From assembly GCA_966095765.1 (NCBI GenBank), contig CBHTSZ010000002.1:32247-96246 (forward strand): a stretch of 64,000 bases of DNA. The letters run 5' to 3'. This document shows positions 9,275-32,357 of the stretch, piece by piece. The DNA is from an uncultured bacterium (GTDB lineage: Bacteria; Patescibacteriota; Saccharimonadia; Saccharimonadales; Saccharimonadaceae). The notes under the pieces are model-generated. The model was not told the DNA's origin. It saw nothing but the letters and a program-made list of their open reading frames with translations, and did no database searches. Position numbers and translations under genes: made by a program. The stretch's first letter is position 1. Each line of letters opens with the position of its first letter.

Positions 9275-9820
9275 CTAGTTTGATATCTTTTGGATATCGA
9301 ACTGATCACCCAGGCGCCGCCACTGCGCCTGGGTGAGTTCTTTTTCGGGGTTAAACATCACGACTAGGCCACGTTCGAGCATGATGCCGAGCTGCTTGTT
9401 GTTCTGCTTGACCTGGCGGCCGAGGTAGATGCTGCCGTTTGCGGTTTGAACGGTGGCATACTGCTGGATAGCATTGTCGAGAAAACGCTGTTTGAACTCA
9501 GGGATTTCTGTAAACTGTGGCGGCTGTGTGTATTCTGACACAGTTACGGACTTGCCCTCAAAGTGAACGATAAAGGAGAGGAGCTGTACGCCTTTTTCTA
9601 CTTCAGCGAGCCTGTAATCTGTGACCGTATAGTCCTTGTTATCAAGCGTTACGAGAAATGGCGAGAAGGTAAGCTCTTGGCGGATTGAAGTCGGGATGCG
9701 AGCGGCTTGGCGTTCGAGATACCGGTAATTCGCAACCGCCACCGTTGCGATGACGAGAAGGGCAACTGTCGCCAGCCCCGCAATTCGCAGTAACTGTATT
9801 CTTTGTTTACGTACAACCAT
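9275..9820 (-). CDS. membrane-anchored hypothetical protein, last gene of the surface locus
   Basis: N-terminal TM (IAGLATVALLVIATVAVA). Lies 22 nt downstream of the giant gene on the same strand. Confidence 0.6.
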   Translation of the reverse strand: MVVRKQRIQLLRIAGLATVALLVIATVAVANYRYLERQAARIPTSIRQELTFSPFLVTLDNKDYTVTDYRLAEVEKGVQLLSFIVHFEGKSVTVSEYTQPPQFTEIPEFKQRFLDNAIQQYATVQTANGSIYLGRQVKQNNKQLGIMLERGLVVMFNPEKELTQAQWRRLGDQFDIQKISN

Positions 9821-9842
9821 AGTTTTAGCGCGTCAATCCCAT

Positions 9843-12800
9843 CTATCGGACGATGAAGTTTACGTACATTGAGCCGTTACAGTTGTTGGCGGCGGTACAA
9901 GTTGTCGAGTAACTGGTACGTGCGTTTCCTGGCGAGAAGTAGAAGGCGTTGTTAGGAATAGTGGCGATCGTAGTAGCGTAGCCGTTTGTTGTACTACCTT
10001 TGGCGAACTGACCGGCGCTACCGCTAATCGCCTTAACGAAGCCAGGGCCAACGCTTGTCACGATCGTGTTCGGGTCGGTACCGCTCGTCGTACCGTTCGT
10101 GGCAACAACGAGACCATAGAGTTTACCGCTACAGGTAGTACCAGGGCAGGTTGCAGGGGTTACAGAAGAACCAGATGAGTCAGCGATCATGCCAAGCTCA
10201 ACGGCGGTTGAGGTAGTGACCGCCTCTTTCATCGCTGAGGTAAAGGTACGGACATCGTAGAGGTCGTCGATAACGCCGCCCGTCGTTGTTGAGCCTTTTA
10301 CGTCTGCGAGGCAGAGAACAGGTTGTGCTGCGCTGAAGTTTGGTAATCCTGAGGTAGCGCTCGTCTGGCCTGCGGTCGTCGTGAACTTTGGCTGGCCTGT
10401 TATCTCATCGAGGCAGATGTGTCCCCATGTGGCAGATGTCGACAGGTTAATGTTTGGCGCGGTACCTGAGTTGGTGCTGAGATCGGTAGCGCTTACGGTG
10501 ACACGGCGACCGTTTGAGTAGGCTGTACATGGTTCAACATGTAGTGTGCTCTGTCCTGACCAGGAGACACGGCATGGTCCTGTGTATCCTGGAGTAATCA
10601 GGGAAGGCAGGTCATATGGATGGCTACCGCTCGATGGTACAACCCCGAATGTTAGGAGGCCGAGCGTGTCTGGGTTCGAGATGTCGTTCCAGCTGCCATT
10701 GATACAGCCTCGGATGCTACCCATCGTGCTGTTGTAGTACAGGGCACCATTGTTCGTTGAAGAGCTGCAGGTACCGCTAGCATCGGTAGATCCGTTGTAG
10801 GTGTCGAGCTGGAAGATTGTTTGCGTGCCGTCTGCCGATGCCCCAGACCCAATACTTGTTGGGCCATTTAGGACGATCCGGCCGTTCGGCAGTACGCTCA
10901 GGAGGTCGGTCGTGCTGTTTTGGACAATAAATCGACCGTTTGTACCCGTACAGCCAGTCGTACACTCAAGCCGCATGACGATACTTGGGTCAGTAGTAGA
11001 GGTGTCGCTCGCAGTGATCTGGAAGTTTTTTCCGTCAGAAAGCGCCACATTTGCCGGGGTCGGGCTGTTGTTGTATGCGTCCTGGAGGTTGAAGTTTACA
11101 CCGACACCACAGCCCTGGTAGTACATTCCACCGGTTGCGTTGATCTTGAGACATTCCCCGTTTGCGCCGAGTGCGGATGGCAGGGTGAGGGTGTAGGATG
11201 AGCCAGATGAAGTAGGGCCAAGTAAGGTGACGGTATTTGTGCCCGCAGAGCTATGGAACAGTACAGATCCGGTGTTGGTTGCGCTTTGGCCAAGGGTGAG
11301 CGAGTTGCTGCCTTGGATTGCGAGAGTTCCACCCATGTTTACGGCTACATTGCCCGTACCGATGGTTATGTTACCGCGCGTACCGGTCGCGGTTCCGGTG
11401 TCGATAGTGAGATTGCCGGAGTTCCCAGCGCCAGCATTACCGGTCTTGATACTAAGGTTTTGAGTACTGCCGGCTGCATTGTCCTGCGTCTTGATGGCGG
11501 TAAGGATACCGGTGCCGGTGATATTGAAGTTACCGGTCTGGGCTGTACCTGGGGTAGTTCCTTGGAGAGCAACAGTCGCACCGGCGGAAGCAGAATAACC
11601 AGGGCAGGTGACGGCTGTCGTACAGATTTCGGCGACGGCACCACCAATAATGGCTTTGAGTGTACCAGAGTCGGAACGGTAGAAGATGCCACCGTTGAGG
11701 CCAGTTAGTGAGGTTGGGTCAGAGTTAGCGCTGTCAACGACGAGGATTGATGTGTCACTGTCGCTGCCAGTGTTGTCGCCGATGCGAACCGCATTATTCG
11801 CGGTATCAGCGGTAAATAGTGTATTGCCAGCACCGGCAGACTGGATACGGAATGCAGTTGTGCTGTTCGTGGCGTTACGGTACGTCATGTCGGCACTCTC
11901 AAGGTTGCGCTTCATGTAAAAGTCGTCAAAGTAGAAGGTGCCGGTAGTCGCGCTGTTGCGAACTGTGGCCGAGACCCTCGCATAGACAGTTCCGGCTGGA
12001 GCCATAGCGCCGACGCTGCGCTGGATGTAGCTGGTTCCTGGGGTGCTGCCGTATGCGGTGCTATTGCTGATGACGCCCTTGTCCTTGTTGTACCACGTGA
12101 TCTGGATGCCAGCGTTACCATTGGCACCGGCACTGTTCTTGACCCATCCGGAGAGATAGAGGCTTTCACCAGCGTTAATCTCGTAGTAACTACCCGCAAA
12201 CACATCGATGTTTGCCGTGCTTGCAGTAATGGCAAGGACGTTGTTCCCGGTACGGGCATTAGCATTGTTTTCGAGAATACTTGAGGTCGCTGGCCCGAAC
12301 CAACCCTCCTCGCCTCCGGTGATAAGTCCGCCTGATTCAAAACCTGGATTACCGATCTCATTGCCTGCTGAACGGATGGCGTTACTGATGACGTAGTTAT
12401 TGCTACTGTTGATGTTAAAGAGGTAATCGCCAGTCGAGTTAAGGACGCGGAAGGCGGAGTATTCATCGCTCGTACCCTGGATTGTCACACGACCAGTGTT
12501 GCTGACACCGAAGAGCACCGTACCAAGTCCAAGTGAGTTGCTGCCACGGATGTTGAGCAAGTCGGTGCCGATCGAGGTGTCGGCGTCCTGGATGTCGATA
12601 GTGCCACGGATGCTGTCGAGTTTTATCTCTGGGGTTGTTGCCGGGTTGCTACCGTTGTTGTAGGTTGCCTGGAGGGTGGTTGCGTTACTGGCTCCACCTG
12701 GCGTCCAGGCTGCACCGTTCCAAATCATGGTCGAGGTAGTGTTTTTGCGCATTGCAACATCGATGACATCAGCGCCACTGTTAGTCCGTAGAGTGAAGTC

Positions 12801-14555
12801 TTGGCTTGTCGTGTTGGTCGTAACAAAGACGGTACGTCCCTTAGTGGTCGCGTTGGTTGGTGCTGGCAAAGTTATGGTGATATCCGTGCCCGTGGCACTG
12901 ACGATGATAGTGCCGTAGTTGTCGACATTACTCTGCGAAATCGTACAGTCAGTGGCACAGCTTGCGTTCGTCACGGTCATGTGTGCGCTGGGCCCGAGAT
13001 TGACGATACCCTTTGTGCCGGTTCCGTTTGCAGTACCGCCCGTGATCGTGACATCGCCGCCGTTACCGTTGGTGCCACCGCCAGCGCCACCCTGGATGAC
13101 AAGGTTGCCGCCGGTCAACGGTGTGCCGCCGCTGCCAGCAGCACCCGCAGTCATGGTTAGTGAGCGCCCCGCAATACCTGCTCCGGCAGTAGCCATCGAG
13201 ATGGCGTGGTCAGAGGCGGCATTAAAGGTAACATCGTTGATAGTGAGGTTGCCCGTGAAGGTTTTATCACCCGCGAATGTTTGCGTGCCCGTTCCCACCA
13301 TACCAGGGGCGGTAGCGCTTGCATTTTGAAAGATGATCGAGTTTCCGGATATGGTTGCACCATCGACTGCGGTGTTGGTTGTGCTGTAAGCTCCAACGGC
13401 CGTCACGCCGGTACCAGTACAGTTTGCGAGAGTCTGGAGACAAAAGATGTCATTTGCCGTAGTCACCGGGATGTCGTAGTTGTAGTTTGCTGCGAGGTTG
13501 CCGACTCGGATAGTGGCGTTGTTTGAGGAGCCGTCTGAGATGACAACGTTACCAGCGACACTGCCGGTTCCGATGGTGAGGGTGCTTGCTTGGATGGTCG
13601 TGTTTTGACCGAGGTTTATGGCGCTTGTGTTACTGCTTCCGATCGTCACAACACCGTTGATGCCTGTACCGGTTTTGGCGCCAGCGTTGATGACGACATC
13701 GCCACCGTTAGCATTGGTGCCGCCAGCTGCGCCACCTTGCAGGAGGAGGCTGCCGCCATTGCTGCCGCTGCCACTGCCGCCAGCACCTGCTGAAACCGAA
13801 AGTTGGCGTCCGGCAACGCCAGCAGCGGCAGCGGTTACAGATAGAGAGTGGTTGGCGTTATTGCCCAAGGTGATGTCGCCGGCATTAGAGACCGTGAAGA
13901 CATCGGTCGCTGATGCCTGGAGCTGCAAGAAGTTGCCAGTACTAGTCTTGTTGATGAAGACGCTCGTTGTGTTCGTCGAAGCATCCGTCTGTACGCCTTG
14001 GGCGAGCTGGAGGAACTGTGCGCTCGACAGGCCGCCGAGCTGGCCGGCATTGAGGGCGTACGGAGTCGCTGAAAGCCGTTTCATCGGGAGCATTTCTCCG
14101 TCTGGGCTACAGTTTGCAAAAGGGGTACAGGTCGCGTTTGTACCGGCAACGTTCATGCTGATCCAGAGCGTGTCCTGGTTCCAGTCGATAGAGCTTCCGA
14201 ACGGTGTGACTGAGCCGAGTTGTACCGAGAGGAAGCCATTACGGACGAGTACACCCTTGCTGTTCGCGTTGAGCCAAGACTCGGTCCATTTGAGCGTACC
14301 AGCAGGGGAGCCGGTCGTATTGCCGGCTGTTTGACCATCGCCATCCTGGTAGATCTTGAACTGGATGTTGTAGTAGCCATCAGGGACGGTGGCGCCTTGG
14401 GCGTTGAGGAGACGACCCTGGAAATTGATCTCTTTGCTGATTCCTGTGGCCGCCTGAGCAGGAGAGATTGCAACAAAAATAGACATGAAAACCATGCCTA
14501 TAAGCAGACTAATCCCCGCACTTACGCGAAATACACGCTGAGTCCTCGCACTCAT
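9843..14555 (-). CDS. giant secreted/surface protein (1570 aa), Gly/Thr/Ser/Asn-rich with CBM-like jelly-roll module
   Basis: Signal-like N-terminus ...ISPAQA. Two ~75-aa Gly-rich repeats (AGRQLSVSAGAGGSGSGSNGGSLLLQGGAAGGTNANGGDVVINAG and AGRSLTMTAGAAGSGGTPLTGGNLVIQGGAGGGTNGNGGDVTITGG). Central segment GNPGFESG...ARTGNNVLAI...FYFDDFYMK resembles a CBM4/9-type sugar-binding fold. Own promoter TTGTCA-N17-TATGCT in 14556-14653. Confidence 0.8.
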   Translation of the reverse strand: MSARTQRVFRVSAGISLLIGMVFMSIFVAISPAQAATGISKEINFQGRLLNAQGATVPDGYYNIQFKIYQDGDGQTAGNTTGSPAGTLKWTESWLNANSKGVLVRNGFLSVQLGSVTPFGSSIDWNQDTLWISMNVAGTNATCTPFANCSPDGEMLPMKRLSATPYALNAGQLGGLSSAQFLQLAQGVQTDASTNTTSVFINKTSTGNFLQLQASATDVFTVSNAGDITLGNNANHSLSVTAAAAGVAGRQLSVSAGAGGSGSGSNGGSLLLQGGAAGGTNANGGDVVINAGAKTGTGINGVVTIGSSNTSAINLGQNTTIQASTLTIGTGSVAGNVVISDGSSNNATIRVGNLAANYNYDIPVTTANDIFCLQTLANCTGTGVTAVGAYSTTNTAVDGATISGNSIIFQNASATAPGMVGTGTQTFAGDKTFTGNLTINDVTFNAASDHAISMATAGAGIAGRSLTMTAGAAGSGGTPLTGGNLVIQGGAGGGTNGNGGDVTITGGTANGTGTKGIVNLGPSAHMTVTNASCATDCTISQSNVDNYGTIIVSATGTDITITLPAPTNATTKGRTVFVTTNTTSQDFTLRTNSGADVIDVAMRKNTTSTMIWNGAAWTPGGASNATTLQATYNNGSNPATTPEIKLDSIRGTIDIQDADTSIGTDLLNIRGSNSLGLGTVLFGVSNTGRVTIQGTSDEYSAFRVLNSTGDYLFNINSSNNYVISNAIRSAGNEIGNPGFESGGLITGGEEGWFGPATSSILENNANARTGNNVLAITASTANIDVFAGSYYEINAGESLYLSGWVKNSAGANGNAGIQITWYNKDKGVISNSTAYGSTPGTSYIQRSVGAMAPAGTVYARVSATVRNSATTGTFYFDDFYMKRNLESADMTYRNATNSTTAFRIQSAGAGNTLFTADTANNAVRIGDNTGSDSDTSILVVDSANSDPTSLTGLNGGIFYRSDSGTLKAIIGGAVAEICTTAVTCPGYSASAGATVALQGTTPGTAQTGNFNITGTGILTAIKTQDNAAGSTQNLSIKTGNAGAGNSGNLTIDTGTATGTRGNITIGTGNVAVNMGGTLAIQGSNSLTLGQSATNTGSVLFHSSAGTNTVTLLGPTSSGSSYTLTLPSALGANGECLKINATGGMYYQGCGVGVNFNLQDAYNNSPTPANVALSDGKNFQITASDTSTTDPSIVMRLECTTGCTGTNGRFIVQNSTTDLLSVLPNGRIVLNGPTSIGSGASADGTQTIFQLDTYNGSTDASGTCSSSTNNGALYYNSTMGSIRGCINGSWNDISNPDTLGLLTFGVVPSSGSHPYDLPSLITPGYTGPCRVSWSGQSTLHVEPCTAYSNGRRVTVSATDLSTNSGTAPNINLSTSATWGHICLDEITGQPKFTTTAGQTSATSGLPNFSAAQPVLCLADVKGSTTTGGVIDDLYDVRTFTSAMKEAVTTSTAVELGMIADSSGSSVTPATCPGTTCSGKLYGLVVATNGTTSGTDPNTIVTSVGPGFVKAISGSAGQFAKGSTTNGYATTIATIPNNAFYFSPGNARTSYSTTCTAANNCNGSMYVNFIVR

Positions 14556-14653
14556 TGTTTCTTTTCGTTCCTACCCCTCTTATTTACCTACCTTAAGCAT
14601 AATCCTTGTGACCGCTTTTGACAAGGCGGAAAACAGGGATGAGAGGGCTATTT

Positions 14654-15631
14654 TTAGCCGTGAATTGCAACGAGACGCTCTTGTTTTGAAAGAACGCGTT
14701 TTTCGCGTTGCTCACCGAGCCAGAAACTTGCAACAACCGCAACAGCGCCCGTGAAGATGGGCCAGAGGAGAAGCAGTTGGCCAGGTGTCGCGACCGGCTT
14801 CGTGCTTGCCACTGCAGGGTCGGGCTGGCCGTTGACGATAGCGGCTACCGTCAGGAAGGCAACGCGGCCACCCGTATCTGTCGCCTGGAAGGTCACCTGG
14901 TAGGTACCAGGTTTTTTGTAGACATGGTCGACGTTGAACGTTGCATTGTCGTTTCTCGGTACAACTTTGTTTGAGGCGTCGCCCCATTCGACGTTGACGG
15001 CATATGGTGGCGTACCTCCGAGTACGTCCAGTGGAACAGTCATGGTCTGTTCTGGGAAGACGCCACGAAATACCGCATCGCTATTGAGGAGGAGCTGATT
15101 GCCGCCGAAGTTAAATGGTGTGACTGAATCCGATTGGGGCGGTATGGCGTCGTAGTAAACGATGACTGTGTTTGAGTCTGGTCCGACCTGGTTGAGCGCA
15201 TCATAGACGCGGGCTATGAGTGTATTCTGACCGATCAAGAGGTCAACTTCGAGGCTATAACTACCTTTATCGGTACAGACAGTCGATCCGGCAAAGATAT
15301 CATTTTTAAACAGTTCAACCAAAGTATTTTCAGGACAGGTTCCAGATACGGTAACGGGGGAAGTGGTAAAGTGTTGACCGTTGCTTGGGGTGCGGATCGT
15401 AGCTGCTGTGGTTGGCGGTTTGCCGGGCATGATACCGGAGAGGCCAACAGAACCAGCTTCTGGGCCGTCGTATGGGGTAGCCGATTCGACAGTGGTTGAG
15501 AAAACAGACAGCGCAAAACCAACGATGACGAGCATGAAAGCGAGCGGCACGTATGAAGTATGCTCATGCGGTCGAAGCTTGAGCGTATGCTCGTGATGAC
15601 TAATCTTTAGTATCTTTTTTGTTTTCGACAT
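14654..15631 (-). CDS. bitopic membrane protein with Ig-like and PKD domains
   Basis: His-rich N-terminus, then a TM, then an Ig-like segment. PKD-like VEWGDASNKVVPRNDNATFNVDHVYKKPGTYQVTFQATDTGGR. C-terminal TM. Confidence 0.7.
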   Translation of the reverse strand: MSKTKKILKISHHEHTLKLRPHEHTSYVPLAFMLVIVGFALSVFSTTVESATPYDGPEAGSVGLSGIMPGKPPTTAATIRTPSNGQHFTTSPVTVSGTCPENTLVELFKNDIFAGSTVCTDKGSYSLEVDLLIGQNTLIARVYDALNQVGPDSNTVIVYYDAIPPQSDSVTPFNFGGNQLLLNSDAVFRGVFPEQTMTVPLDVLGGTPPYAVNVEWGDASNKVVPRNDNATFNVDHVYKKPGTYQVTFQATDTGGRVAFLTVAAIVNGQPDPAVASTKPVATPGQLLLLWPIFTGAVAVVASFWLGEQREKRVLSKQERLVAIHG

Positions 15632-15685
15632 GATTTTGTTTTATTGTATACGCTTTTGGCTATTTTCGTAAGTGGACCCCTGAAA

Positions 15686-16699
15686 CTATTTCTTGCGACG
15701 TGTCGGTTTCTTTTTTGGAGCTCCTGTTGCCTTGCGGATGATTGCTTGGTTGTAGCCGCGGATCATGCGACGGAGCAAGAGGAATCCAACGATGACGGCA
15801 AACGTACCGATGAGCATAAGCTTCCATGGAATAACCCAGAACGTTAGCTTTTGGGTGACAGATTGACCCTTTGCGTCGGTGATCGTGACCTTGGCATGGT
15901 AGAGGCCAAAGAGCATCTTGTTGCCGATGACAGTTTTGTCGAGATGCGTTTCGAATCGGCGGATAGTGCCAGGCAGAATGTTTCGAGGCGGTAGGTTGAC
16001 GTTGAGGCCGGCAATAGTCTTGCCAAACATATCGGTTATCATGATGCGGCCTGCAGGCTGTTCATGAACGTTACCTTCGTTCTTGATGCGAACTGCAAAG
16101 GTAATAGGTGTGCCTTCGAGGACAGTTTTGGGTACGTTCTGTTTCGTAACTGCGTTGAAGCTAGCGATACTGAGTTTCTCGTAAGCGTCGCCATTAACGC
16201 GAAGGAAGATGAGCGCCCCGACACTGGCCGACAGGGATACGCCGCTTGAGTCAACGCCAGGGGCGGTTGCGGAGAAACGTACAACCGAGTAGTAGCCGCC
16301 AGGTGCGGCGTCTTTTGGAATCGCAATCACAAATGGCAAGCCTTGGATCTCTCGAGGTTTCAAAGTGAGTTGGCCGATAGGACGAAACCATGCCTTCATC
16401 GAGTAAGGGCTTGTCTCACCTTCGTTAAGAAGTAGTCGTGGCATACCTTCTTCACCTTGAGCGGTAAAGTCATTGATCTGGTTGGTGACCACAAGGCTGG
16501 TTGGAGATACATCACGAAGGTTTATGGTGCCTTTTACGGTCTCGCCTGGGTTTCCCCGTAGGTTGATGACCGGAGGGGCTATCTCAAGTGCTTGGCCTGC
16601 CTGGGCAGGATTTGTTGCTGCGTAAGCCGTCAGAGGCCCCGCGATAGCCACAGTGACCGCTAGAAGGCTGAGTATGGTGGCACGTATCGTTTGTTTCAT
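15686..16699 (-). CDS. cell-surface protein with DUF916/DUF3324-like architecture (WxL-locus partner type)
   Basis: Signal peptide, two beta-sandwich-like halves (..VINLRGNPGETVKGTINLRDVS.., ..ITFAVRIKNEGNVHEQPAGRI..), then a C-terminal TM plus basic tail (WKLMLIGTFAVIVGFLLLRRMIRGY...KKKPTRRKK). Layout matches the family. No HMM search was run. Confidence 0.55.
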   Translation of the reverse strand: MKQTIRATILSLLAVTVAIAGPLTAYAATNPAQAGQALEIAPPVINLRGNPGETVKGTINLRDVSPTSLVVTNQINDFTAQGEEGMPRLLLNEGETSPYSMKAWFRPIGQLTLKPREIQGLPFVIAIPKDAAPGGYYSVVRFSATAPGVDSSGVSLSASVGALIFLRVNGDAYEKLSIASFNAVTKQNVPKTVLEGTPITFAVRIKNEGNVHEQPAGRIMITDMFGKTIAGLNVNLPPRNILPGTIRRFETHLDKTVIGNKMLFGLYHAKVTITDAKGQSVTQKLTFWVIPWKLMLIGTFAVIVGFLLLRRMIRGYNQAIIRKATGAPKKKPTRRKK

Positions 16700-16702
16700 A
16701 TC

Positions 16703-17848
16703 CTAGAAGGTCGGCGTACAGATGTAGGTAAGAGTAGTGGTGTAGGTACCTGCGTACTGGTTACCAGCAACGTTCACGATGTAAGAGGCCGTGTATACTT
16801 GTGAGTTGGTTGGACCAAGCGTGTTGTTTGAAGCACCATCGTAGGCACTGTTTGCGACAGAGTCACCCGAAGCATATTTATAGACATCAGCTGTGTTGTA
16901 ACCGGTGAGAGCTTGACCTTTGTAGTCGACTGCATCAGAAGCAACAGCGATCTCAGCACCGAAGTCGATGTCACCGTTGTCGCCATCGAGAGTGATGAGG
17001 TTGGCTTTGAGATTCATGCCAAACTGGCTCACACCGATCGTAGGAGCTGCTGCAGCTGCCATGGCCGGAATAGAGTTTGCACCTGATGTCAGCGTCGCAC
17101 CATTTACGGTGATGACATAGCCTTGTCCGGCGTTGGTACTGGCTGCCATCTGGGATGTTGCGTATGAAGTTGAAGTAGGGGAGAAGAGCTGGTTGAAGCT
17201 GACTGCGCCTGGTGTCGTCGTCGCACAGTTTGCAGACACGGTTGCACCAGTACAGAAGATCAAGGACTCAGGCATAGTACCGCTAAGTTCGATAGCCTGT
17301 GCAGTGCTTGCGGTGACGGTACCTGCGTCTACAGCGCCGGTCGTGGCGTCAGTAGAAGAATAAGTAGTAATGCGGACAAAGAACGTACCAAGCGTCGAGG
17401 GGTTGACGACACTGTCGAGGCGTACCGTAACGCTACCAGGAGTAACTGCAGCAGCTGTACGAGTTAAGATAGCACTGTTTGCAGTCTTGGTGCCCATAGC
17501 AAGTCCACTAATAGCACCAGTATTAGCTCCGAGCGTTGCTCCATTTACATCCAAGCCCGTCGGTGCCGTACAGGTACCACTAGCGATCGTACAGTATTCA
17601 AACTTTACAGATCCAACGTTCGTGCCGCTTGGGACAGAAAAGGTAAAGAGGTGGTCAACAAGTCCGCTCGGAAGGGTTGCACCGTCAAGCTCAGAGCCGA
17701 CATCGGCACCATCGTGAGCATTACCAACAAGGGTAAGGCTTCGTGGCTGGATTTCCGCAGCAGTTACCTGTGCTAGTGGTAGTATCGCCGTTGCTAGGAT
17801 CAGTAAGCATAGCGACACTATCCGTGTTTGTTTCCCCAACTCTGTCAT
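16703..17848 (-). CDS. secreted surface protein, paralog 3 (381 aa), possible divergent WxL-like
   Basis: Signal peptide ...AQVTAAE. Shares GTMPESLIFCTG, SQMAASTNA, YVITVNGATLTSG and QFGMNL with 17917..19233. Its last 16 aa, AGTYTTTLTYICTPTF, are identical to those of the neighbour. TAGTAT lies 6 nt before the ATG. Confidence 0.75.
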   Translation of the reverse strand: MTELGKQTRIVSLCLLILATAILPLAQVTAAEIQPRSLTLVGNAHDGADVGSELDGATLPSGLVDHLFTFSVPSGTNVGSVKFEYCTIASGTCTAPTGLDVNGATLGANTGAISGLAMGTKTANSAILTRTAAAVTPGSVTVRLDSVVNPSTLGTFFVRITTYSSTDATTGAVDAGTVTASTAQAIELSGTMPESLIFCTGATVSANCATTTPGAVSFNQLFSPTSTSYATSQMAASTNAGQGYVITVNGATLTSGANSIPAMAAAAAPTIGVSQFGMNLKANLITLDGDNGDIDFGAEIAVASDAVDYKGQALTGYNTADVYKYASGDSVANSAYDGASNNTLGPTNSQVYTASYIVNVAGNQYAGTYTTTLTYICTPTF

Positions 17849-17916
17849 GTAGCAATACTAGCATGAGCAGAATAGGGGACACAAGCGTTTTATGTGAGTT
17901 TTTTCACAGAAGGGTT

Positions 17917-19233
17917 TTAGAAGGTCGGCGTACAGATGTAGGTGAGGGTCGTGGTGTAGGTACCAGCTGGGAGGTTACCTGGAACGTTCGCGATATAGCT
18001 GACTGTGTAGATCTGACCGTCCGTGCCACCTTGTGCTGAGCTACCAACAGTACTTGGATCGGCGTCGTCTTCGAGACTGTTGGCGACTGCGTTACCGCTC
18101 TGGAAGCGGAATTGGTCGACAGTTCGGTATCCGAGGAGAGGCTGTCCGCGATAACCCGTACCGTTTGAAGCTGTCGTGATGTTAGCCGTGTCGGCGTAGT
18201 TGTCGGTAGCGAGCCATGCAGCACAACCAGCGTTGGTTGGTGTGGTCTGACAGTTGTTAGGGTCAGGGGTAACATCGAGAGCGTTTGCACCGAAGCCGCT
18301 TGCAACAGTAGTCGTGTTAGCGACGAGGTTCATGCCGAACTGTGCAGTACCGCGGGTGCTAGGGAGTGGTGCGCCTGCGCCACCGACCATACCAGCGATC
18401 GTGTTGCTACCTGAAGTAAGCGTAGAGCCGTTTACGGTGATGACGTACCCAAAGGTAGCGTTGGTGCTTGCAGCCATCTGTGAGGTCGCTGCTGCCGTGT
18501 CAGTTGGGGAGAAGAGCTTATCGAAACCGATAGTACCAGCGGTTGCGCCCGCACAGTCAGGGACGGTCGTAGAAGCGATAACAGGAACGGTGCGACCAGT
18601 ACAGAAGACGAGGGATTCGGGCATCGTTCCGGTGATTTCGATTGGAGTAGCGGTACTTGCAGCGACGACACCAGCATCAACAGGGTTCGTGGCACCATCA
18701 CTTCCTTGGTAGGTAGTAATACGTACGTAGAAGGTCGTGTTCGTTGCAGTTGGTGGAACGATACCACTGAAATCAGCAGTGATGATCGTGTTTGTGCCGT
18801 TCGGGTCGTTGTCGACGAGTGCGGCAGCCGGACGGCCAATCCAGAATTCGTTTGCAGCGGTGCTGGTTGTCGTGTTCCATCCGGTGGCACCTGAACTGTT
18901 GTATAGAGTAACGGCTGAGGTATCGAGTCCCGCAGGGGCTACACAAGTCGGATTAGCTACAGAGTTTGCTGCAGTCGTACAGTACTGGAAGCGCATGGAT
19001 CCGAGATTTGTACCAACGGCAGGGCTTGAGAACGTGAAGTTGTGTCGCACGAGGTCACCTGCACTTTGAAATGGCGCTGAACCACCAGTCGTGTCAGCCT
19101 GAAGGTTTAGGCTACGAGTGGTGAGCTGTGCAGCATTTGCCGTTTGGAACGGAAGCACGAGTGGAGTTGCCATGAGAAGTAACGCGGCAAATACACGCGT
19201 TGCTATAGCAAAAGATAGTTGTGGTGTTTTCAT
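17917..19233 (-). CDS. secreted surface protein, paralog 2 (438 aa), possible divergent WxL-like
   Basis: Signal peptide ...QTANAAQ. Same conserved blocks and identical C-terminal 16 aa as 16703..17848. Promoter TTGACA-N17-TATTCT upstream, with an A-rich leader. Confidence 0.75.
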   Translation of the reverse strand: MKTPQLSFAIATRVFAALLLMATPLVLPFQTANAAQLTTRSLNLQADTTGGSAPFQSAGDLVRHNFTFSSPAVGTNLGSMRFQYCTTAANSVANPTCVAPAGLDTSAVTLYNSSGATGWNTTTSTAANEFWIGRPAAALVDNDPNGTNTIITADFSGIVPPTATNTTFYVRITTYQGSDGATNPVDAGVVAASTATPIEITGTMPESLVFCTGRTVPVIASTTVPDCAGATAGTIGFDKLFSPTDTAAATSQMAASTNATFGYVITVNGSTLTSGSNTIAGMVGGAGAPLPSTRGTAQFGMNLVANTTTVASGFGANALDVTPDPNNCQTTPTNAGCAAWLATDNYADTANITTASNGTGYRGQPLLGYRTVDQFRFQSGNAVANSLEDDADPSTVGSSAQGGTDGQIYTVSYIANVPGNLPAGTYTTTLTYICTPTF

Positions 19234-19346
19234 CTCTTTGTTTTTCTTTTTTTCTTTTTTGGTTTTAAGGTATTACCCGAAGAATAGCATGAGCATTTTA
19301 GGGTGTCAACGGATTTTATAAGAAAAAATGCAACGTTGTGGAAAAC

Positions 19347-20075
19347 CTAGTACGTGCCGGTGACAATGATCGTCTGGTTGGTCTTGTAGACACCACCTTC
19401 TGTCAGGGGCGCGACGTTGACGAGATAACTGATCGTGAACGTCGTGACACCTGAGCTCTTTGGCGCGCTCGCGATCACATCGCCGTTCACATACCGGTAT
19501 TTGTTGGGCGTTGCGTAGTCAGGGTGAGCGACACCATAGCCGAACTGTCCCTGGTCAGGATTGGCACCTATCGATGTAGGGGAGGTGTTGGCGACGAGGT
19601 TCATGCCAAACTGCTCAGTGCCGGTCTGTGATGATGTGGCTGTGCTGAGGGCAGGAATGCTACGAGTACCTTTTGTTGGAGGTTTGCCCTCGATCTGCAC
19701 GACATACCCGAAAGATGTATAGTTAAGAACCGAGAAAGTTGCGGTTGCCATACTCGGTGCGGTAGGCGAGAAAGCTCCAAGACTCGCGTTGGTGGTATTG
19801 ATCTGAACTGAAAGTGCGGGGTCGGGGGTTGTCTTTGAACCTGCTTGTATCTGGTAGTTGGCGGAAGCCGCTTCACCAACGGCAACATCACCGAGTGCGT
19901 GAGTTGACTGGTAGTTTGCGGAGCTGGACTGCACCATGCTGCCTGAGCCGATCGTGCTTTCCTCGAACTTGTAGTTAGGAGACTCCAGCTCTGCGTGAGC
20001 GGTATGGGAATAGCCAAACACGACGCTAACGCCGACCAAAGACAGGCCTATCCATCCCCAAAACCTCTTCAACAT
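19347..20075 (-). CDS. secreted surface protein, paralog 1 (242 aa, short form)
   Basis: Signal peptide ...SHTAHAE. Shares FGYVVQIEG / EQFGMNLVAN blocks with the two larger paralogs. TACAAT lies 7 nt before the ATG. Confidence 0.7.
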   Translation of the reverse strand: MLKRFWGWIGLSLVGVSVVFGYSHTAHAELESPNYKFEESTIGSGSMVQSSSANYQSTHALGDVAVGEAASANYQIQAGSKTTPDPALSVQINTTNASLGAFSPTAPSMATATFSVLNYTSFGYVVQIEGKPPTKGTRSIPALSTATSSQTGTEQFGMNLVANTSPTSIGANPDQGQFGYGVAHPDYATPNKYRYVNGDVIASAPKSSGVTTFTISYLVNVAPLTEGGVYKTNQTIIVTGTY

Positions 20076-20183: not shown

Positions 20184-21209
20184 GTGGCGGATTCCCCGTC
20201 TTCAGGAAAAGACAAAACAACCGGTGCTCCTGCTCCTGAGGTGTTGAAGCCTCAGTCTGAAGAATCGACCCCGGCAGCCGAGTCCAAGGGCAGTCCACAG
20301 CGTACTGCTGTGCCTTCAAAGCGCTTGAGGCGCGGATCATACCGTCCTAGCCATAGGGCGACGTTTATCGGGCTTGCAGTTGTTATCGCCATCCTTGCTA
20401 TCAACGGCGGTGTTATCTTTTGGGTACTGCGCAGCAATGGCAGTGCTAGCGCTCAGGGTAATCGCGAAGAAGTAACGTTGAGTAGCGATACGCTCGATAA
20501 GCTCGGCGTGAGCCGTAATGCTGTCGGTGACTTAGGTACTGAGCTCGTTGTCGGACCAAACTCACGGTTTGGCGGCAACGTGACGATTGCCGGTGATACG
20601 AGCGTTGGCGGCTCACTCAGACTCAATAGTAAATTTACCGCTTCAGAAGCTAGCCTCGCCAAACTCCAGGCCGGCGATACTGCCGTTAACAAGCTCGATG
20701 TGAACGGTGACATTACTGCCCAGAGTGTGAATGTCGCGCGTGATCTCGCGGTTATGGGTACGACGAGGCTCCAGGGAGCAGTAACGATAAACCAAGTATT
20801 GACCGTTAACAACAGCGTGAACGTTGCTGGTAACTTGGCTATCGGTGGCGCGCTCAGCGTGCGTAACTTCCAGGTCAGCACCTTGACCGTTGCAGGGCAC
20901 CTCATTAGTACAGGTGCAGCACCAGGCGTTAGTCCTGGCGGGGCGCTTGGCAGTAGCGGCACGGTGTCTATCAGTGGAAATGACACGGCAGGGACGATCG
21001 GGGTTAATATCGGTGTCGGTGGTAGCGCTGGCTGCCTGGCCTCTGTAAGCTTCCGTCAGCCATTTACCGTAACGCCTCGAGTGGTTGTCACGGGGAGCAT
21101 GCCGGCAAATATCTATCTCTCAGGACGTACGGCAAGTGGCTTTACGGTTTGTACAGCAGCGGCTCTATCTCCTGGGGGCTACTTCATCGACTACATTGTA
21201 GTTCAATAG
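20184..21209 (+). CDS. membrane-anchored repeat (beta-helix-like) protein with lectin-like C-terminal domain
   Basis: Disordered N-terminus, TM (FIGLAVVIAILAINGGVIFWVL). Repeats of the type GNVTIAGDTSVGGSLRL / VNGDITAQSVNV / VNVAGNLAIGGALSV. The C-terminal ~90 aa loosely resemble an H-type lectin fold (weak). Confidence 0.6.
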   Translation: MADSPSSGKDKTTGAPAPEVLKPQSEESTPAAESKGSPQRTAVPSKRLRRGSYRPSHRATFIGLAVVIAILAINGGVIFWVLRSNGSASAQGNREEVTLSSDTLDKLGVSRNAVGDLGTELVVGPNSRFGGNVTIAGDTSVGGSLRLNSKFTASEASLAKLQAGDTAVNKLDVNGDITAQSVNVARDLAVMGTTRLQGAVTINQVLTVNNSVNVAGNLAIGGALSVRNFQVSTLTVAGHLISTGAAPGVSPGGALGSSGTVSISGNDTAGTIGVNIGVGGSAGCLASVSFRQPFTVTPRVVVTGSMPANIYLSGRTASGFTVCTAAALSPGGYFIDYIVVQ

Positions 21210-32180: not shown

Positions 32181-32357
32181 ATGAGTACACAAACAAACAT
32201 CGAAACTACTGAACGAGTTGCATTGCTCCAGACAAGTGAAGATCTCAAGACAGCGTTGCTGTTCGTCTCGCTTGCTGCAAATGCCTTCATCTTTATCTCT
32301 TGGCTTGTTATCCAGGTAGATCCAGGTGTTGCACTTGTCTTGATGACAACATCATAG
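32181..32357 (+). CDS. small membrane protein (58 aa; below the ORF-track cutoff)
   Basis: MSTQTNIETTERVALLQTSEDLKTALLFVSLAANAFIFISWLVIQVDPGVALVLMTTS. Bracketed by a strong promoter and a terminator. Confidence 0.5.
   Translation: MSTQTNIETTERVALLQTSEDLKTALLFVSLAANAFIFISWLVIQVDPGVALVLMTTS

Follow-up and report, generated by a model that had tools for sequence, protein, structure and literature searches.

Genes and family assignment of the locus

The genes of a probable Pam pilus were characterised in a stretch of DNA of 64,000 nucleotides (the window; contig CBHTSZ010000002.1 of assembly GCA_966095765.1, forward-strand positions 32,247 to 96,246) from an uncultured Saccharimonadales bacterium. 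The locus occupies positions 9275 to 20075 and consists of seven co-directional genes, for which an earlier note, made from the sequence and its open reading frames (ORFs), had proposed a cell-surface complex of the WxL/Csc type. The following genes were annotated (window coordinates):

19347–20075, minus strand: pamT, tip pilin of 242 amino acids (aa); NCBIfam NF058579 CPR_pilus_PamT equivalog
17917–19233, minus strand: Pam shaft pilin of 438 aa, PamA position; NF058581 and synteny
16703–17848, minus strand: Pam shaft pilin of 381 aa, PamE position; NF058581 CPR_Pam_pilin_C and AlphaFold2 (AF2) model
15686–16699, minus strand: membrane-anchored pilus chaperone of 337 aa with two immunoglobulin (Ig)-like domains, PamD position; AF2, Foldseek and hhalign
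14654–15631, minus strand: pamR, RbmA-like terminator/anchor of 325 aa; NF058578 CPR_pilus_PamR equivalog and Pfam PKD
9843–14555, minus strand: giant secreted protein of 1570 aa; synteny, no family match
9275–9820, minus strand: N-terminally anchored protein of 181 aa, last gene of the co-directional run; transmembrane segment at residues 7–33

The gaps between these genes, from pamT to the gene of the 181-aa protein, measure 113, 68, 3, 54, 98 and 22 nucleotides (nt); number, direction and lengths of the genes and the gap range of 3–113 nt are exactly as given in the earlier note. The 438- and 381-aa proteins sit at the positions of PamA and PamE in the operon, and they are matched to these names by position.

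Family membership was determined with NCBIfam and Pfam. The Pam pilus has been described for Candidatus Mycosynbacter amalyticus (Troman et al., bioRxiv 10.64898/2026.03.03.709456), and this work is the source of models NF058578, NF058579 and NF058581. The 242-aa protein was matched by the PamT equivalog NF058579 (282 bits, cutoff 240, residues 13–242), the 325-aa protein by the PamR equivalog NF058578 (353 bits, cutoff 300), and the 438- and 381-aa proteins by the model of the Pam pilin C-terminal domain, NF058581 (107 and 130 bits, respectively, cutoff 55), which also matched all 46 of the 46 pilin homologs. No WxL, DUF916 or DUF3324 match was obtained for the seven proteins with Pfam at E≤1, and the sole Pfam domain found among the locus proteins was PKD, in the 325-aa protein. 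Together with the fold and membrane anchor of the chaperone, the synteny, and the linker motif common to the pilins and PamR, which are documented below, these memberships identify the locus, with a probability of about 90%, as the pam operon for a Pam pilus, a filament specific to the candidate phyla radiation (CPR). A clear match to a different system had been named beforehand in the earlier note as the finding that would speak against its own label; such a match was obtained here with the PamT, PamR and Pam pilin C models.

The order ATP synthase, divergent 341-aa gene, PamT, two to three pilins, chaperone, PamR and giant protein was found in 10 full-length Saccharimonadales loci, and three further short contigs hold parts of it. 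PamR is 53–65% identical across the syntenic loci, pamT is the first gene of the operon in all related loci, and the gene order of a close relative (L027) is identical to that of the window. All named homologs of the locus proteins come from Saccharibacteria/Saccharimonadales. In the window, the ATP synthase operon is likewise found immediately upstream, together with the divergent gene:

20184–21209, plus strand: membrane-anchored fibre-like protein of 341 aa, divergently transcribed; synteny and weak PHROG match

The common form of the pam operon appears to be simpler than that of the type organism, with a single chaperone, a pair of shaft pilins and a giant secreted partner. As the Pam system was published in 2026 and is encoded in NCBIfam, the locus is a further member of it in this simpler form.

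The strict retention of gene order across genera also bears on the reading that the run holds unrelated secreted adhesins and S-layer-like proteins, merely co-transcribed and without any assembly relationship. The 1570- and 181-aa proteins, being without a family match, would suit such a set, as would the promoter and terminator scans of the locus, in which the signal was at chance level, but the conserved order, the linker motif common to the pilins and PamR, and the matches to curated equivalogs make it extremely unlikely. Just upstream of the gene of the 438-aa pilin, the scan, which was at chance level overall, gave a good sigma-70-like site (19281–19309, minus strand; TTGACA and a TG-extended TATTCT, 17-nt spacer), possibly an internal promoter serving the major pilin.

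Pilins, PamR and accompanying proteins

The 438- and 381-aa pilins are 50% identical (phmmer 2e-77), and PamT was matched to each of the long paralogs at 1e-8 to 1e-11; by sequence comparison, the paralogy of the three proteins is far beyond chance. No further paralogs were found in the window. The peptide blocks listed in the earlier note are present with the distribution given there: GTMPESL, FCTG, SQMAASTNA, YVITVNG and TLTSG occur in the 438- and 381-aa proteins only, and QFGMNL is common to all three. The C-terminal end is AGTYTTTLTYICTPTF in both long forms and VYKTNQTIIVTGTY in the 242-aa protein. The following strands and residues were located in the long pilins and PamR:

18595–18648, minus strand: linker and candidate donor strand TPIEITGTMPESLVFCTG of the 438-aa pilin, translation checked
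17246–17299, minus strand: linker and candidate donor strand QAIELSGTMPESLIFCTG of the 381-aa pilin, translation checked
16706–16753, minus strand: C-terminal strand AGTYTTTLTYICTPTF of the 381-aa pilin, translation checked
17920–17967, minus strand: identical copy of the C-terminal strand AGTYTTTLTYICTPTF, 438-aa pilin
16715–16717: C-terminal-strand cysteine C377 of the 381-aa pilin
17929–17931: C-terminal-strand cysteine C434 of the 438-aa pilin
Within the linkers: cysteines C199 (381-aa pilin) and C211 (438-aa pilin)
15413–15454, minus strand: strand GSVGLSGIMPGKPP of PamR, following the signal peptide, translation checked

The near-identical DNA of about 50 nt that had been noted at 16703 and 17917 was confirmed: 44 of the 48 nt beneath the common 16-aa end are identical, with an exact run of 26 nt. 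Gene conversion was considered as the cause and set aside, its support being weak at most: 12 of the 16 codons of this end are identical, as against 44% elsewhere in the 438/381 pair (Fisher p=0.02). Since the 16-mer equals the consensus of the family (46 members), its identity is ascribed mostly to purifying selection across the family.

The 438-aa pilin is laid out as a signal peptide, a beta-sandwich N-terminal domain, the linker (candidate donor strand) and a C-terminal acceptor domain. For the 381-aa pilin, 2748 homologs were found, the named ones from Saccharibacteria. In its AF2 model the N-terminal domain (residues 63–181) reached a predicted local distance difference test score (pLDDT) of ~90, the linker (184–224) remained below 50, and the C-terminal domain (225–381) lay at 55–86. 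Disorder of the linker is what a monomer model should show if the strand becomes folded only within an adjacent subunit, and the confident N-terminal domain, disordered linker and moderate C-terminal domain together form the pattern that the model of a subunit lacking its complementing strand would be expected to give. Nowhere is the pilin family more invariant than in the linker block GTMPESL[IV]FCTG (residues G190, M192, P193, E194, S195, F198, C199 and G201 in 381-aa numbering). Weak Pfam matches to DUF2808 were recorded in 16 of the 46 pilin homologs (best E 0.0018), in the N-terminal beta-sandwich at about residues 131–171 of the 381-aa pilin.

The cysteine count of the mature pilins is odd, and the near-invariant cysteine of the C-terminal strand is without an obvious intramolecular partner. 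This residue and the linker cysteine of the next pilin could form an intersubunit disulfide; an equivalent cysteine is absent from PamT, from the N-terminal strand of PamR and from the chaperone. PamT has no cysteines at all and lacks the GTMPES linker block. Its residues 30–75 (19851–19988, minus strand) contain three S-x-N-Y-(K/Q) repeats ahead of the Ig-like domain, and its identity to the protein of the close relative L027 (77%) is the lowest among the operon proteins (85–95% for the others). The repeats and the fastest divergence would fit an exposed, host-contacting tip.

PamR consists of a signal peptide, an N-terminal donor-like strand, two Ig/PKD domains and a C-terminal transmembrane segment at residues 283–306; the latter and the PKD match (24.8 bits, cutoff 23.5) bear out its earlier description as a PKD/Ig membrane protein. 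The strand GSVGLSGIMPGKPP has an [LI]-x-[ST]-G-[TIV]-M-P core in common with the pilin linkers. This core follows the signal peptide in 8 of 11 Saccharimonadales PamR orthologs; V/L or V-A stands in place of M-P in those of L003, L008 and L011, and the distant PamR of L012 lacks the motif. Its occurrence fits the proposal that PamR would terminate the fibre with a donor strand of its own.

The 1570-aa giant, described correctly in the earlier note as secreted, has a signal peptide, 11 closely spaced cysteine pairs and no transmembrane segment, and gave no Pfam, NCBIfam or PHROG match. It is 87% identical in L027; between genera, conservation is confined to the N-terminal ~330 aa (49–63% identity over roughly the first 170–350 aa), and the remainder is replaced or resized (1061 aa in L001, for example). 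Of the 11 Saccharimonadales loci with a contig that continues beyond pamR, 10 have the giant after this gene, usually as its direct neighbour; in L003 it was not detected. It may have a role in the pilus. The arrangement of a conserved attachment module and a variable distal part resembles receptor-binding fibres. The 181-aa protein, N-terminally anchored as the earlier note had it, is 85% identical in L027, and its gene is conserved in close relatives only (absent from L001–L011), which makes it probably a lineage-specific protein and not part of the core. Nothing informative came from PHROG scans of the giant, the chaperone and the 181-aa protein.

The divergently encoded 341-aa protein carries an N-terminal transmembrane anchor, beta-helix-like repeats and a C-terminal domain of ~100 aa (ISGNDxAGT...GF...FDYIVxQ), which also ends the giant of L001 (13684–14211) and two ORFs of L012 (573–1109 and 3544–4422). 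The gene is syntenic in 10 of the 10 loci that reach upstream of pamT (44–55% identity), and the protein gave a weak PHROG match to a structural protein (4.6e-5); it is probably the 'tail fibre-like protein' of the M. amalyticus preprint. A 'TGSMP' motif in it was considered as a third donor strand and rejected as a chance occurrence because it is not conserved in the 341-aa orthologs.

Several points weigh against the assignment of the locus to the Pam system. The Pam filament of this organism is predicted from genes, and the 337-aa protein, for whose family NCBIfam holds no model, is called PamD-like by position and fold only. The 1570- and 181-aa proteins, with no family match in Pfam or NCBIfam, have no assigned role in the pilus, and Foldseek with the 381-aa monomer model returned only generic Ig-like adhesins and, at low probability, tip adhesins of chaperone–usher systems.

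The membrane-anchored chaperone and its kinship with WxLIP

The 337-aa protein was modelled with AF2 (39 homologs, pLDDT 78) as a signal peptide, two beta-sandwiches (residues 38–168 and 176–289) and a C-terminal helix (292–325) containing a transmembrane segment. By hydropathy, this segment was placed at 285–314, and the basic tail ends in KKKPTRRKK; the architecture is the one the earlier note had described. NCBIfam holds no model for this family. When the model was searched against the PDB with Foldseek, the Enterococcus faecium WxLIP structures 9i1y and 9i25_C were among the top matches (E 1.5e-9, TM-scores 0.39/0.46–0.49), level with the chaperone–usher chaperones CfaA (TMt 0.47–0.52) and CsuC; RbmA was also returned, with poor TM-scores. 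When the pilins, the chaperone and profiles of both were searched by sequence against PDB entries that excluded 25PZ and 25QA, nothing relevant was found.

The matches to CfaA and CsuC would be accounted for by a classical chaperone–usher or sortase-type pilus acquired from another phylum, and the M. amalyticus preprint notes a Pap/Fim-like truncated Ig domain as well as donor-strand exchange (bioRxiv 10.64898/2026.03.03.709456). However, no usher- or sortase-like protein was found among the eight proteins scanned with Pfam and NCBIfam, the locus proteins contain no LPXTG motif, and PapD_N and PapD_C matched none of the 39 chaperone orthologs in Pfam. The chaperone is moreover membrane-anchored, the predicted donor strand is an internal linker instead of an N-terminal extension, and acquisition from another phylum is at odds with named homologs that are all from Saccharibacteria. 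An origin of this kind is hardly credible.

For comparison with the WxL systems, WxLIP and WxL profiles were built from real WxL clusters fetched from plasmids and genomes; the profiles are regarded as valid because they recover the PDB chains EfmWxLIP1 and 9i25_A. The profile of the chaperone orthologs was aligned to the WxLIP (DUF916/DUF3324) profile by hhalign with a probability of 96% (E 3.4e-9) over 114 columns, corresponding to the whole DUF916 domain, whereas all controls (reversed profiles, cross-family pairs, PamR as an Ig-plus-transmembrane protein, and N- versus C-terminal domain) gave 6% or less. PF06030 (WxLIP_PGBD) was matched below threshold in 15 of the 39 chaperone orthologs (best E 1.8e-4). 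The second domain gave 0.7% against DUF3324 (PF11797), and only the overall two-domain fold superposes. Judged by these profiles, the family's N-terminal domain is remotely homologous to DUF916/WxLIP_PGBD, as a distant relative and not a member. Of the earlier identification as a DUF916/DUF3324 protein, the DUF916 half is supported as remote homology, in line with the Foldseek matches to WxLIP, and the DUF3324 half and membership at the level of Pfam are not.

The loop of residues 88–110, EGETSPYSMKAWF (16370–16438, minus strand), has low AF2 confidence and contains P98, S100 and W104, which are invariant in the 39 orthologs. It is paired by hhalign with a conserved WxLIP loop (D.SLKYN) and is a candidate for the strand complementing the pilin C-terminal domain. 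In the WxL system, a WxLIP strand has been predicted by AF2 as completing the beta-sandwich of WxL (PMC10599100), which amounts to donor-strand complementation.

On the side of the pilins, the relationship is far weaker. No W-x-L motif is present in the mature forms of the three paralogs, and PF13731 (WxL) matched none of the 46 pilin homologs in Pfam. Between pilin and WxL profiles, hhalign aligned only the C-terminal strand, with VNVAGN..AGTYTTTLTYIC of the pilin opposite LNVPG..A..Y..TLTW.L of WxL (20–21 columns, probability 6–14%, not significant). Profiles of the C-terminal domain only, the addition of PamT orthologs, and a diverse 117-sequence C-terminal-domain profile drawn from a 1.84-billion-protein search and compared with 23 WxL domains raised the probability only from 5–6% to 14%. 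A greedy alignment was collinear, with GYVITV opposite the first GW.L motif, and was likewise not significant. The suggestion in the earlier note that the pilin strand takes the place of the terminal WxL motif is accordingly borne out as the best local profile alignment and not at a significant level. In the Foldseek search with the 381-aa model, the 50 best matches did not include the WxL chain 9i25_A, which is a weak negative because the C-terminal domain of the model is only moderately confident.

According to the WxL/Csc reading, the paralogs would be WxL-like proteins held non-covalently at the wall, the 337-aa protein would act as the WxLIP that stabilises them, and the product would be a surface patch, not a filament. 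It draws on the remote DUF916 homology with its clean controls, the sub-threshold PF06030 matches, the WxLIP structures returned by Foldseek, the same helper architecture, a parallel gene content, and the WxLIP strand predicted to complete the WxL sandwich (PMC10599100). It has to contend with window proteins devoid of Pfam WxL, DUF916 and DUF3324 matches, the insignificant pilin–WxL alignment, the missing DUF3324 relation, the curated PamT, PamR and Pam pilin models scoring above cutoff, and homologous proteins seen as filaments by cryo-electron microscopy (cryo-EM). As a reading of the locus it is very unlikely, and membership in the WxL/Csc family is refuted: the two W-x-L motifs of the WxL domain, Pfam domains, a small LPXTG protein (CscD) or sortase, and a Bacillota host all fail. 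As an analogy of mechanism the idea is correct, and as remote homology it is correct in part.

Proposed assembly and comparison with known systems

In M. amalyticus, filaments of PamA and PamB were found by cryo-EM to be based on donor-strand exchange (PDB entries 25PZ and 25QA), the donated strand being the linker between the N-terminal beta-sandwich and the truncated Ig-like C-terminal domain (bioRxiv 10.64898/2026.03.03.709456). In AlphaFold models of the same preprint, PamT is placed at the tip, PamC and PamD are PapD/FimC-like chaperones carrying a transmembrane helix at the C-terminus, and PamR is a membrane-anchored terminator whose N-terminus is predicted to be inserted into the last pilin. 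No usher was found, and the neighbourhood comprises ATP synthase and a fibre-like protein.

For the Pam pilus of the present locus, the following assembly is proposed. All operon products would be exported by Sec. The 337-aa chaperone, tethered to the membrane by its C-terminal helix, would cap the incomplete Ig-like C-terminal domain of each new pilin. PamT would nucleate the distal tip, since it has an acceptor domain only, and the 438- and 381-aa pilins would join at the base through donor-strand exchange, the inter-domain linker (...[ST]GTMPESL[IV]FCTG) entering the groove of the previous subunit beside its conserved C-terminal strand. Growth would be stopped by PamR through insertion of its N-terminal ...LSGIMPG... 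strand, with the C-terminal transmembrane helix anchoring the fibre; usher, sortase and ATPase would play no part. The filament would make the first contact with the host bacterium. Assembly order, strand insertion and host binding are inferred or adopted from the cryo-EM and AlphaFold results for M. amalyticus; donor-strand exchange at this locus is predicted, with indirect evidence from the unvarying linker block, from the disorder that the monomer model shows there and from the recurrence of its motif in PamR. The locus probably encodes the first-contact, host-attachment filament of an uncultured Saccharibacterium, and the earlier guess of a host-attachment apparatus agrees with the Pam literature.

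The closest known system is the Pam pilus of M. amalyticus. Common to both are equivalogs of PamT and PamR, pilins of two domains that contain the Pam C-terminal domain and have a conserved linker, a membrane-anchored chaperone with two Ig-like domains, the lack of an usher, ATP synthase and a fibre-like protein as neighbours, and a host lineage within Saccharimonadia. The gene order implied by the supplement of the preprint is T-A-E-D-R-B-C (bioRxiv 10.64898/2026.03.03.709456). Whereas M. amalyticus has PamC plus PamD and three divergent shaft pilins (PamA of 55 kDa, PamB of 38.7 kDa, and PamE), the present locus has a single chaperone and a pair of shaft pilins with 50% identity to each other, and the PamB–PamC module after pamR is absent, its place being taken by the 1570-aa secreted and 181-aa anchored proteins. 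PamR is similar to Vibrio cholerae RbmA, on which the name of NF058578 is based, in its tandem fibronectin type III/Ig-like domains; it differs in the N-terminal donor-like strand and the C-terminal transmembrane anchor, RbmA being a secreted matrix protein.

Chaperone–usher pili (Pap/Fim; CFA/I with CfaA; Csu with CsuC) are alike in the chaperone fold with two Ig-like domains (TMt to CfaA as above), in truncated Ig-like subunit domains, and in donor-strand complementation and exchange. The Pam system, in contrast, has no usher or outer membrane, its chaperone is membrane-tethered and gives no PapD_N/PapD_C signal, its donor strand is an inter-domain linker, and its pilins carry an extra N-terminal beta-sandwich in a fibre that is extended, not coiled.

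The WxL/Csc systems (PF06030, PF11797; 9i1y, 9i25) have a helper with signal peptide, two Ig-like domains, C-terminal transmembrane segment and basic tail, to whose N-terminal domain that of the Pam chaperone is remotely homologous (hhalign 96%). In both systems a helper strand is predicted to complete the incomplete beta-sandwich of the partner, and the C-terminal motif A..Y..TLT[WY].[LC] is common to both. A small paralog consisting of the domain only, larger N-terminally extended paralogs, a giant surface protein and a small anchored protein also recur. In the Bacillota WxL clusters examined (L014–L026), the recurring components are a large surface protein of the beta-helix (Pectate_lyase_5) or lectin type, a small protein with LPXTG, one to three WxL proteins, a WxLIP and often a class A sortase, a content that parallels the giant, the small anchored protein, the three Pam paralogs and the chaperone. 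The present locus differs in having no W-x-L motif, no match at the level of Pfam, no detectable DUF3324 sequence relation in the second domain, and no LPXTG protein or sortase, and in belonging to the CPR and not to Bacillota. Pam subunits assemble into long filaments; for WxL proteins, by contrast, complexes bound to the wall are described.

It is tentatively proposed, as a possibility that on balance is doubtful, that Pam pili and WxL/Csc clusters are two branches of one ancient monoderm 'tethered chaperone–subunit' system. Under such an origin, chaperones of the PamC/PamD type may be equivalent to WxLIP (DUF916–DUF3324) and the Pam pilin C-terminal domain to the WxL domain, with GYVITV as the first GW.L motif and AGTYTTTLTYIC as the terminal A..Y..TLTW.L; PamT may correspond to the 'short WxL' protein and the shaft pilins to the 'long WxL' proteins. 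The Pam preprint (bioRxiv 10.64898/2026.03.03.709456) does not mention WxL, and no paper linking the two systems was found in the literature searched, so that the kinship is possibly unreported. New in the present work are the quantified relationship between the Pam chaperone and WxLIP and the hypothesis of an origin and mechanism common to Pam and the WxL clusters. The homology of the chaperone to WxLIP/DUF916 ties a pilus found only in the CPR to a surface system of enterococci, listeriae, lactobacilli and the Bacillus cereus group, the mechanism of which has long been unclear, and it suggests donor-strand complementation as the common principle. Existing structures allow the idea to be tested directly. 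If it is true, donor-strand exchange may be the way in which WxL proteins are passed on or polymerised, and the cryo-EM structure of the Pam filament would become the structural paradigm for them.

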